A DNA stretch of 64,000 nt from assembly GCF_056712565.1 (NCBI RefSeq), contig NZ_JBWXXM010000003.1. One strand, 5' to 3'. Positions 30,001 through 33,000 of this stretch are shown here, piece by piece (positions within the stretch are counted from its first letter, which is position 1; each line of letters opens with the position of its first letter). Source of the stretch: a plasmid. A program made the position numbers.

Positions 30001-33000
30001 CTCTACACCTAACGCTTACATTTTATTTACAGCGTTTGATATCTTCCTCGCCTTTAACGCCTTTAACGCCTTTAACGCCTTTAACGCCTTTAAGGGGGGA
30101 AGATAGAGCAACTCACCGATGATGAATAAAGTGGACGAAGAGACGATAACTACACTCCCATCCAGGGGGGGGCTTTTTTTGTGGTACTGTAGTGTGGGAG
30201 TAAGTTCGGGTCTCATATTGAATGAGGCGATTGCGAGCTGCCTTTCATCGAAAACTAATGTCCATTGTCATTGTATTGTCTGACTCTATCTCGTAACAAG
30301 TCTTTGACACAAAGTTTTATATTTTTATCAAAGTGGACATGAGGGGAATTAAATTTGTGATCTTTTTCAAATAATGTGTTCTTGATAGTAGATTCTGGTT
30401 AGTGATATCTATTAACAATATATTAAATTTCTTTTGTATTATCGCTGATAAAACTACTGTATTGGTATACTATATATTATTGAGTAACAGGAGATATCAC
30501 TATGAAGAAATTTTATCAATTTAGGGATGAACAGCGAAAGGAGCTTGAACAACATGATTTTTATAGTTTGATTTCTTCAGATTGTATAGCGTTGAAAGAT
30601 AAACTATTATTTGCTCCTGTTATGGCTCATTTCATAATGAACTTCAGAGACATGAATAAATGGGTTATCAGGTTTGATAACAATGATAATGAATATAAAT
30701 CTGTTATAAACGGTGGAACAATCGAGGATGAAACACATTCAAGATTGTTTCTGGAAGACTGGAGGAAACTATATATAGATGACAAACTTAACTGGAAAGC
30801 AAGTGATGTTATATACTGGTTGTTTATTAGTCGAGAAATGGAGTGTTTCCGAAAATTTGGTATTGATTTTATGAGACTTTGTGTAGATGATGGAGGAGAC
30901 CCAATACTTCGATATTCTCACTCCGAGTCAGGAGAAACTTGCGGTAATATATTCTTTTCAAGAATTAGTCCTATTGCTGATCAAGTTGCCAATCATTTGG
31001 GAATATCACTCCGTTATTTTGGAACATTTCACCTTAATCTTGAAAATGGACATGTATGGAAGTCAGAAGGTGTTTTTGAAAATATAGAGTTGTCACCAGA
31101 TTCTTATAAGAAAATGGCTACTCTATCAAAGAGAATGTTTGATATATTTGAAGGAATTCATGACTCTTTTTATAATTACCTGTCCAGTTATGTTCTTAAT
31201 GGAAGTCATCCGTCATTTTTTGAATCATTACCTGTAGGGAAAAATGTTGCACCTATATACCCTGAATTTGTGATAGAAAACAAAAGCCATAACGATGGTA
31301 GACATATTGAACATATAAACAATTACCTGGAAAAAATATCGAGTCATGAGTTCTTTAAATGGCTGGTTAACACCTCAATAGACCCTCAATTGAAATTGAA
31401 AAGTTTCATACCTCTTTGGATTGTTGATATTATGGGGTATAGAGATATTAATAAATATGTTTTTACATATGAACAGCCTGAATCAGAAAGTGAAAAGATT
31501 ATAAATGATTATGCATTACACTTGTCAGAGCATAGCCGTTTATTTTATCATGACTGGAAGTCACTTCAACTTGATGATATGTTACGTTGGAGTGCCAGTG
31601 ATACTCTTGAGTTTATTTTTCTTAATTCAGATATGGATATGCATAGAGAAAATATAGTTAAGTTTTCTTTGTTCGGATTAAAACACAGAGATCCTGTTAT
31701 CAGGTTCTGGTTTATGATGATACTGGAGTTAAGTGGAAAAGAATTTTTCTCTCATGTTGGAGATATAGCTTTACAGGTGGAAAGTAAATATAATATTTAT
31801 CTCCCATATTTATGTGGACGCCATGCAACAGAAAATGAGCATGAAGCATATAATAATATGTATGAGCATTTTATGGTAAAGGAACTTAGCCCTGAACAAA
31901 GTGATCTAATAATACAAATTACAGACATGGTTATGCGGTCATTATTGAATAATTTGGATATCTCATATCGATATGTAGTAAATAATTTATTGGCAGCTCG
32001 TTAGAAGAACAGCATTGGTATGACTCTGATGCTCCTTAAAATCCCACTTTTCAGAGTGGGATTTGTTTAATGCCCAGAACAGGGGGAATTTCCATTCATG
32101 CCCAAAAAATATTTTGATGTCCTCTCGCCAATTCTCGCGCTCAGTCCTTCCTGAAAAACCTCAGAATTCACGTAGCGCATCGCCGCTACTGCATCCATCA
32201 AAAAAAATGACAGCTTTTTTAATCATCTTGTGTTACTCAACTTACTGAAAAATGTGATTTATGAAAATGCCGCCGTCGGCATCAAGCAGTTGGCCAGCGC
32301 AACCGGCTGCATCGACCGCAACAAAAAAACTGAAAGAGAAAGCCCCTCAAATGAGGGAGAAAAAAAGGAAGTGCAGTCAACGAGAGGCGTAAAAAACCCG
32401 ACTGGTGAGGTCGGGTTTTAATACGGTTCCGGTTCTGAGTTGGTGGCTCTGACCGGAGGAAGTCACTCTACACCTAACGTTTACATTTTATGCACTCAGC
32501 CGCAGTATTGCAACTAACTGTGGTTAAGGCACCACATTTAGTTGTGTATCGTGGGTTTTATATACCTTATAATCATGAAGTTAGCCGTGTGGTGTGGCTT
32601 CTTCCTCTGCCCTTCCCGTTTATGCAGGTATGAACGATTTTAAAGTCCTGGCTGAACAAACAGGTGGTGCTGTGTTTAGTGCTCTGGCAGGAGGAAGTCA
32701 CTCTGCACCTAACAATGCGAGAGAACCGTTGTGACAGGCAGTGTAAGAGCAAGCAACGGTGATTTCCTCCAGTTTTACTGGAGAAACGGATGATTAATCT
32801 GTTAATCATCGTTCTCAGGGCTGTGGTCGCCGTTGCAAACGCGCTGATTGCAATTCTGGAACTGATTCGCCAGTTCATCGACTGATGACAGCGGAAACGT
32901 AACTAAGGACAGGAAGTGAACCGCTTCCTGCCCTTTAACGTACTGTGATATTTTTCAAAAAAACTCACCAATATTCTCCTCGGCAGAAATGACATAACTC

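Follow-up and report, generated by a model that had tools for sequence, protein, structure and literature searches.

Diiron oxidases of the AetD type were discovered very recently, and only two of them have a known reaction, both being unusual one-enzyme rearrangements of tryptophans. AetD, the nitrile synthase of Aetokthonos hydrillicola, converts 5,7-dibromo-tryptophan to a nitrile, and its homologue SktA, the skatole synthase of Nostoc punctiforme, converts 5-bromo-tryptophan to skatole and cyanide, so that single enzymes of this branch can make different products from tryptophan. AetD is a single-domain protein of about 239 amino acids (27.97 kDa) and a homodimer, whose interface through aux helix 3 and helix 2 covers about 1,650 square angstroms. 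SktA, which we place in AetD-related sequence space from its description only, is likewise single-domain, and its gene adjoins those of a tryptophan halogenase and a flavin monooxygenase. Here, we compare these enzymes with a protein of 500 amino acids, hereafter the tandem protein, whose gene lies on a stretch of 64,000 nucleotides (nt) of plasmid DNA (contig NZ_JBWXXM010000003.1; hereafter the window). AetD and SktA are its only characterised relatives. Read from its sequence, the tandem protein is a putative asymmetric, fused variant of the AetD/SktA-type oxidases, in which only the first half is predicted to carry a full two-iron site. This architecture is present on the well-studied and clinically important ColV/pS88 virulence plasmids, where it has been annotated merely as a "hypothetical protein" (WP_000715081.1 for the pS88 copy, which is identical in DNA sequence).

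The two halves of the tandem protein are clearly duplicates of one another. Residues 13-184 align with residues 277-447 at 32% identity over 173 residues (BLASTP, E=3e-25), far beyond chance, and the four repeated blocks singled out in a preliminary description of this DNA all fall within that alignment. The same description proposed the Pfam family PF14518, which the searches did not support: a hidden Markov model search of Pfam-A returned no PF14518 match up to an E-value limit of 10, only a chance match to Ribosomal_S16, and NCBIfam yielded no match at the same limit. In a sequence search of the PDB, AetD was the sole protein matched by either half. The N half matched it over residues 1-231 with about 24% identity (phmmer, E=2.6e-18) and the C half with about 18% identity (E=1.1e-5), a match that reached E=3.2e-20 with a profile built from 22 C halves.

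Structure prediction gave the same picture. A full-length AlphaFold2 model based on 96 homologues reached a predicted local distance difference test score (pLDDT) of 94.3 and a predicted template modelling score (pTM) of 0.93, and its best 21 PDB matches in Foldseek were all AetD (PDB 8JI2-8JI7, 8TWN/8TWT/8TWW, 8ZVG/8ZVH), with target template modelling (TM) scores of 0.83-0.91. The C half modelled alone (pLDDT 94.8) likewise found AetD in all of its best 21 matches (TM 0.79-0.86), and the order of helices in the full-length model corresponds one to one between the halves. Both halves are therefore predicted to be AetD-like domains whose fold, a seven-helix bundle, is that of heme-oxygenase-like dimetal oxidases (the HDO superfamily), as the preliminary description had suspected. 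Weaker Foldseek matches followed to CADD, TenA, HamA, UndA, PqqC, PolF and HmuO. HamA (fragin biosynthesis; PDB 9VWB), UndA, BesC, SznF, CADD, PolF, RohS and FlcD share this helical fold with the tandem protein, but only at 8-14% identity and without a sequence-level match, and their ligand order is unlike that of AetD. They are single HDO domains, some of them fused to unrelated domains, and none is a tandem. The PF14518/TenA/PqqC proteins are related in fold only distantly, at TM scores of about 0.5-0.65, much below AetD.

That an internally duplicated version is unusual, as was remarked in the preliminary description, agrees with the literature. Neither a 2026 review of HDO enzymes nor the AetD and SktA papers mention a tandem, and no tandem or didomain HDO is described in the literature that we searched. 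AetD homologues are mentioned there only in the SktA paper, which gives all AetD-related homologues as being of unknown function. What is new here is a conserved, fused double-domain sub-architecture in which one domain appears to lack the second iron site, and for which there is no Pfam or NCBIfam model.

The active site of AetD has been defined by crystal structures and an alanine scan (PMC10654658), with H79, H172 and E176 as ligands of Fe1 and D76, E140, E176 and H179 as ligands of Fe2. Y167 makes a hydrogen bond to the carboxylate of the substrate, whose indole is stacked against F44 and F48. Residue-by-residue alignment places D76, H79, E145, H177, E181 and H184 of the N half on AetD D76, H79, E140, H172, E176 and H179, respectively. 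Conservation was counted in an alignment of 96 full-length homologues that are 31-86% identical to the tandem protein and take in about 37 of the best 150 representatives (50%-identity clusters). The six ligands are present in 96 (D76, H79 and H177), 95 (E145 and E181) and 88 (H184) of these sequences. The carboxylate-binding tyrosine (Y172, 95/96) and the phenylalanine stack (F44, 94/96; F48, 96/96) are shared with AetD too. An aromatic box comprising F151, F213, F216 and F223 completes the site; F151 (83/96) and F223 (79/96) vary a little more, the other pocket and ligand residues being kept in 88-96 of the 96. The N half thus shows the hallmarks of the AetD/SktA branch, namely the same six iron ligands, the unusual His-His-Glu order for Fe1 (H79/H177/E181), a Phe instead of a Glu on aux helix 2 (F48) and a Tyr on core helix 3, and all catalytic-site residues are intact in the Escherichia coli copy. 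As this pocket is nearly invariant across the family, we infer that the E. coli protein shares the substrate class of AetD and SktA. One difference concerns AetD S214, which contacts the 7-bromine of the substrate and is a Phe in the tandem protein; halogenase and tryptophanase genes are absent nearby.

The C half is markedly different. It keeps three of the six AetD ligand positions, as H344 (96/96), E409 (93/96) and H441 (96/96), together with Y436 (95/96) and Y313. The bridging Glu is lost, the position of the Fe2 aspartate (AetD D76) is occupied by a leucine, L341, in all 96 homologues, and the AetD F44 position is taken by an invariant aspartate, D309. Position 445, which corresponds to the bridging Glu, is His in 70 of the 96, Asn in the E. 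coli protein and Asn, Glu or Lys across the enterobacterial clade, and the position of the last His ligand of AetD is variable. A set of three histidines plus three carboxylates is absent from the C half throughout the 96 homologues, and the second iron site is, as far as these residues indicate, lost from the C domain. The earlier picture of two dimetal-type domains consequently holds for the N half, where all six ligands are conserved, and fails for the C half, where three of them are. Similarly, of the block RHATENEH, which had been taken to supply metal ligands, only the first His is conserved and the ENEH portion is not, H447 occurring only in E. coli among the close relatives shown.

Both halves are nonetheless under purifying selection. 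The ratio of nonsynonymous to synonymous substitution rates (dN/dS) of the whole gene is 0.11-0.18 against enterobacterial alleles, and within the enterobacterial clade the N half gives 0.09-0.14, the C half 0.13-0.21 and the linker, in the closest pair, about 1. Positions conserved at 90% or above number 49 in the N half and 43 in the C half. The linker contains none, has a mean column conservation of 0.25 and coincides with a drop in pLDDT to 59-76 (in blocks of 10 residues) over residues 241-270. The AetD dimerisation element, around T95/M96, aligns with a D-x2-L-x-W block that is among the best conserved in both halves, and the pTM of the full-length model points to a fixed packing of the two predicted domains against one another.

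An exhaustive profile search of 1.84 billion representative proteins found 733 relatives, labelled hypothetical in every source. Among the best 150 of these, about 37 span both halves in one chain of about 500 amino acids, and most others are single-domain proteins of about 240 amino acids that match the N half and are AetD/SktA-like. The tandem family is rare, with 75 loci located among 185,579 species-representative genomes, most of them in Actinomycetota (Mycobacterium, Pseudonocardiaceae, Amycolatopsis, Actinomadura, Streptomyces) and Myxococcota (Polyangium, Sorangium), with a few in Proteobacteria (Comamonas, Acidovorax, Salinisphaera, Yersinia similis, Salmonella arizonae) and one in Oligoflexus. 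Of 5,426 complete E. coli genomes, 300 carry the gene, nearly always on a plasmid. At the protein level, plasmid-borne copies are found in 266 records of Escherichia, 36 of Piscirickettsia salmonis and 22 of Salmonella.

The genomic neighbourhoods of the family link it to cytochrome P450 enzymes in part of the family. Thirty-five of the 75 loci have a P450 gene no more than 8 kb away. It adjoins the tandem gene and runs in the same direction in 22 of them (16 upstream, 6 downstream) and is divergent within 1 kb in a further five, making 27 immediately adjacent cases in at least four arrangements and lineages. Six loci have a divergent operon encoding a methyltransferase, a P450, a DUF6875 protein and an O-methyltransferase; three of these P450s belong to the divergent within-1-kb set and three lie 2.3 kb from the gene, which brings to 30 of the 75 the loci whose P450 is adjacent or part of an adjoining operon. 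The Comamonadaceae P450 gene overlaps with the tandem gene's stop codon and precedes a gene for a major facilitator superfamily (MFS) transporter. The DUF6875 family was recently characterised as cytochrome P422, whose heme-thiolate enzymes add a hydroxyl group to free L-tryptophan at N1, C6 or C7 (bioRxiv 10.64898/2025.12.11.692455). On gene content, a cluster that combines an AetD-like enzyme with a P450, an O-methyltransferase and a hydroxylase of the tryptophan ring looks like a pathway that starts from tryptophan.

Enterobacterial copies present a different arrangement. Besides the ColV plasmids they occur on an IncF plasmid in E. fergusonii, in a conjugative element and, in Salmonella arizonae-like genomes, on the chromosome close to sbcB and the his operon. 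None of the six open reading frames (ORFs) flanking the E. coli gene stands beside homologues in these other contexts, and the idea that the gene has a constant small partner ORF among the enterobacterial copies was rejected on this ground; what is conserved is the gene itself with about 150 nt upstream and about 80 nt downstream. The enterobacterial gene has a GC content of 33-35% in every context, against 47-51% in its flanks, whereas in Comamonas, Mycolicibacterium and Polyangium the GC content of the gene matches that of the host. The Piscirickettsia copy is flanked by insertion sequences and adjoins ParA/ParB genes. The lack of a conserved neighbour, the compact conserved unit and the contrast in GC content together indicate that in Enterobacteria and Piscirickettsia the gene is a horizontally acquired single-gene module, and its setting suggests that the module is presumably self-sufficient there.

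These comparisons enabled us to propose a model for the tandem protein. By analogy with AetD and SktA, the protein probably suffices on its own to oxidise an amino acid, most likely a tryptophan-like one, to a small molecule, and its substrate is probably an aromatic amino acid; the crystal structures of AetD also hold Tyr and Phe. The preliminary guess of a small-molecule oxidase or oxygenase therefore stands as the predicted function, narrowed by the homology to AetD. In this model, the N domain would bind two Fe(II) and a free alpha-amino acid would chelate Fe1 through its amine and carboxylate, as in AetD. Substrate binding would trigger addition of O2 to the diferrous centre, giving a peroxo-diferric intermediate. 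Like AetD and SktA, the enzyme would next decarboxylate the substrate oxidatively and cleave or rearrange its side chain. A nitrile, a skatole-type arene plus cyanide, or a related product could thereby arise from tryptophan or a different aromatic amino acid. The C domain would stand in for the other protomer of AetD's homodimer, giving an intramolecular pseudo-dimer. Its part there would be to support the structure or to bind a ligand, not to serve as another diiron catalyst. Many Actinomycetota, Myxococcota and Comamonadaceae may hand the product to the adjacent P450, whose step would be accompanied by an O-methyltransferase, a P422 tryptophan hydroxylase or an MFS exporter, while in Enterobacteria and Piscirickettsia the gene would work alone. 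We consider this model, of an N-domain diiron amino-acid oxidase with an intramolecular pseudo-dimer partner that is P450-coupled or stand-alone according to lineage, to be the reasonably likely one. If correct, it would bring E. coli plasmid biology a reaction or product new to it, HDO enzymology a natural heterodimer-like system in which the role of the second protomer could be probed, and the P450-coupled clusters of Actinomycetota, Myxococcota and Comamonadaceae an annotation.

Several points weigh against this model. The pocket of the C half is lined by a nearly invariant His-His-Glu trio and by invariant Asp and Tyr residues, which on their conservation look more like a working site than a pure scaffold. 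The substrate is deduced from two distant relatives (about 24% identity) and from neighbourhoods in part of the family, and the replacement of AetD S214 by Phe means that the pocket differs. The P450 partner is absent in E. coli, where expression is known only from a qRT-PCR (quantitative reverse transcription PCR) table, in which pS88029 corresponds to the tandem gene by gene order only.

The first of these points leads to the principal alternative, in which both halves are catalytic and take two successive steps on one substrate, the N half as a diiron oxidase and the C half with a mononuclear metal site or a cofactor-free second active site. A HamA-like site could be formed by His344 and His441 with either His445 or Glu409, and HamA itself provides a precedent for 2His-1Glu mononuclear iron in an HDO fold. 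The comparable conservation of the two halves and the purifying selection on the C half fit such an arrangement, as do the invariant or nearly invariant H344, E409, H441 and Y436, the new acidic pocket residue D309 and the His found at position 445 in most homologues. In the enterobacterial clade, however, position 445 is Asn, Glu or Lys, and nearby acidic and His residues vary even among close relatives, so that a three-His site is not maintained in the E. coli protein; moreover, the Fe2 aspartate has become leucine in all members. We therefore regard two active sites as a genuine but unlikely possibility. A related and bolder proposal is that of a mobile "one-gene pathway", an asymmetric two-site enzyme whose diiron N domain and remodelled, functional C domain would together act on a common amino acid, tryptophan or another, and make from it a small molecule with bioactivity, for example an indole nitrile, cyanide or a skatole-type volatile. 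Were this so, its spread on virulence plasmids of extraintestinal pathogenic and avian pathogenic E. coli, of Salmonella and of the fish pathogen Piscirickettsia would imply a role in host or microbial interaction, but we think it quite unlikely.

The remaining alternatives concern the plasmid setting of the gene and turn on what is known of its expression and inheritance. On pS88, qRT-PCR of the ORFs pS88026-031, between sitA and sopA, showed changes, up or down, of less than 2.3-fold under iron chelation, in serum and in urine, apart from non-significant decreases of pS88027 and pS88030 to about 0.3-fold; ORF 23 was the one tested pS88 ORF without a detected transcript, and pS88026-029 are absent from the related plasmid pAMM (PMC3438092). 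This lack of response, the absence from pAMM, the 32% GC content and the IS1-bounded island would all suit a silent or functionless AT-rich cargo in E. coli carried between IS1 copies, and so would the finding that 245 of 285 plasmid copies are at least 99% identical, which indicates recent spread rather than long maintenance. Set against this, the ORF is intact in 278 of the 285 plasmid records, the low dN/dS holds across four contexts (ColV plasmid, other IncF plasmid, conjugative element and chromosome), the catalytic residues are preserved behind a strong ribosome-binding site, and the transcript data argue against silence; functionless cargo is thus improbable. An accessory enzyme of iron or siderophore metabolism, modifying for example a siderophore building block, might be expected from the position of the gene within about 4-15 kb of iutA/iucABCD and sitABCD, and two distant representatives (P0207 and P0190) fuse the tandem module to an IucA/IucC-like domain. 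Yet there is no Fur box upstream of the gene, the best site scoring 13/19, a value reached by 22% of shuffled sequences, while the top sites elsewhere in the window score 17/19 in the iuc region and 15/19 in the sit region. In addition, the island ORFs are not iron-regulated, the position relative to sit and iuc is variable, other enterobacterial copies lie in unrelated contexts, siderophore genes were noted in none of the 75 loci, and the tails of the two fusions match nothing in 10 sampled loci or in the window. The fusions were accordingly rejected as an explanation of the E. coli gene. Proximity to siderophore genes, offered earlier as a functional clue, loses its force in this light: the link is positional only, and we give the siderophore role very little probability. 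The same very low rating applies to membership of a conflict or defence system, whether anti-phage or toxin-related. The island does hold a truncated PD-(D/E)XK nuclease gene, an ORF of phage family phrog_7512 and DinQ-like toxin/AgrB modules, and one distant fusion carries a ThsB-type TIR domain, but the tandem protein matches no PADLOC defence model at an E-value limit of 1 and none of the PHROGs, phage-encoded relatives were dismissed as no homologue is found in phage collections, the island neighbours never co-occur with the gene elsewhere, and most family members lie in metabolic or biosynthetic contexts.

The 500-residue ORF was recovered exactly where it had been reported, and the coordinates of its features are collected below.

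Features of the tandem gene and its surroundings (window coordinates)
Feature	Position	Strand	Basis or remark
Candidate TTGACA (30304-30309)/TATCAA pair	just outside conserved upstream stretch	+	by eye; not called by consensus scanner
Upstream stretch travelling with the gene, presumed promoter region	30346..30501	+	88% DNA identity to E. fergusonii plasmid allele from 30346
Candidate extended -10, TGGTATACT	30464-30472	+	by eye; not called by consensus scanner
Shine-Dalgarno AGGAG	30489..30493	+	8 nt before ATG; read from sequence
Coding sequence, 500 amino acids plus stop codon	30502..32004	+	ATG start; ORF list
N-terminal AetD-like HDO domain (predicted), residues 1-240	30502..31221	+	full diiron ligand set, aromatic substrate box
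N-half ligand codons	30727..31053	+	residue-by-residue alignment to AetD; D76 (30727-9), H79 (30736-8), E145 (30934-6), H177 (31030-2), E181 (31042-4), H184 (31051-3)
Inter-domain linker, residues 241-265	31222..31296	+	low pLDDT, low conservation
C-terminal AetD-like domain (predicted), residues 266-500	31297..32001	+	degenerate metal site
C-half site codons	31426..31836	+	column counts; D309 (31426-8), L341 (31522-4), H344 (31531-3), E409 (31726-8), H441 (31822-4), N445 (31834-6)
Hairpin AAATCCCACT-TTTCAG-AGTGGGATTT, 10-bp, possible weak intrinsic terminator	32039..32064	+	35 nt past stop; by eye; repeat D6

The window belongs to a ColV/pS88-type virulence plasmid, with iucABCD-iutA and sitABCD upstream of the tandem gene. 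A 2.1-kb segment around the gene (30200-32300) is 100% identical in DNA sequence to pECOS88 and dozens of other plasmids, many of them of the ColV type. Directly oriented IS1 copies at 26961-27733 and 33971-34742 delimit the island that holds the gene, whose GC content is 0.32-0.33 against 0.45-0.55 in the flanks. The AT-richness of the gene and its placing between IS1 copies, near siderophore genes on a virulence plasmid, had been described correctly. In the window the island directly follows iutA (about 24294-26495), and in pS88 it follows sitA. This difference in position relative to sit and iuc arises because the sitABCD-iucABCD-iutA segment (10672-27736) is inverted with respect to pS88 between oppositely oriented IS1 copies at 10675-11446 and 26961-27733.

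The gene had also been credited with its own long upstream region and its own terminator, and both statements hold in part. About 150 nt of upstream sequence travels with the gene; the rest of the 625-nt upstream region also holds an AgrB-family RNA on the minus strand (29926-30012), a terminator-like site on the plus strand (30155-30172) and a 9-nt tandem repeat, (GCCTTTAAC)x5, at 30050-30095. This repeat is intergenic, and its minus strand reads KALKALKALKAL within a 66-amino-acid ORF. Downstream, the hairpin falls inside the stretch conserved with the E. fergusonii allele, a match that ends at about 32085. A promoter and terminator scan called no promoter in 30172-30501 and no plus-strand terminator after the stop codon; the hairpin was missed because its T tail is short.

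The AgrB-family antisense RNAs are two in number (Rfam RF02891), at 29926-30012 (-) and 32389-32477 (-), scoring 46 and 64 bits against a gathering score of 40 and bracketing the gene 2465 nt apart. RNAs of this family are the antitoxins of DinQ-type type I toxin systems, and two dqlB toxin ORFs are annotated just downstream of the tandem gene in pS88. The AT-rich gene segment therefore lies within an array of dinQ/agrB-like modules, and recombination among these modules could delete or relocate the gene.

Variants elsewhere in the family are of some interest in their own right. A 488-amino-acid gene without a Pfam match beside the Amycolatopsis homologue, considered as an NRPS-independent siderophore (NIS) synthetase, is in fact a second paralogue of the tandem family. 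It directly follows the first in Amycolatopsis orientalis (L006, 9520-10986), and it seems to have lost both its equivalent of the otherwise invariant H344 and part of its N-half H-x3-E-x2-H motif, which could make it a still more degenerate partner. "Split-gene" relatives were considered as a sign of an obligate N/C pair and set aside: the C-half-only representative that was checked sits at a contig edge and is therefore a truncated call, which is evidence neither for nor against such a pair. The two AT-rich, distant fusions to an IucA/IucC-like domain, P0207 (1222 amino acids) and P0190 (1039 amino acids), score 36.5 bits (above the Pfam cut-off) and 22 bits (below it) for that domain, and it is P0207 that adds the C-terminal ThsB-type TIR domain (60 bits). 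A further protein, P0201 (891 amino acids), joins a single AetD-like domain to a Pyr_redox_3/FMO-type flavoprotein; it could represent an AetD-like oxidase joined naturally to a single-component halogenase or monooxygenase resembling AetF.

Within the island, a 149-amino-acid ORF upstream of the gene (29427-29876, +) matches phrog_7512, a phage family of unknown function, nearly end to end (E=3.8e-60). Beside it lie a 159-amino-acid ORF (28830-29309, -) and the truncated PD-(D/E)XK nuclease gene, and none of the three travels with the tandem gene in other contexts. Further along the window, a repeat of about 540 nt occurs in the plasmid leading region as three diverged copies with 86-92% identity, at 42101-42636, 45358-45895 and 50719-51307, close to ssb, antirestriction and methyltransferase genes.

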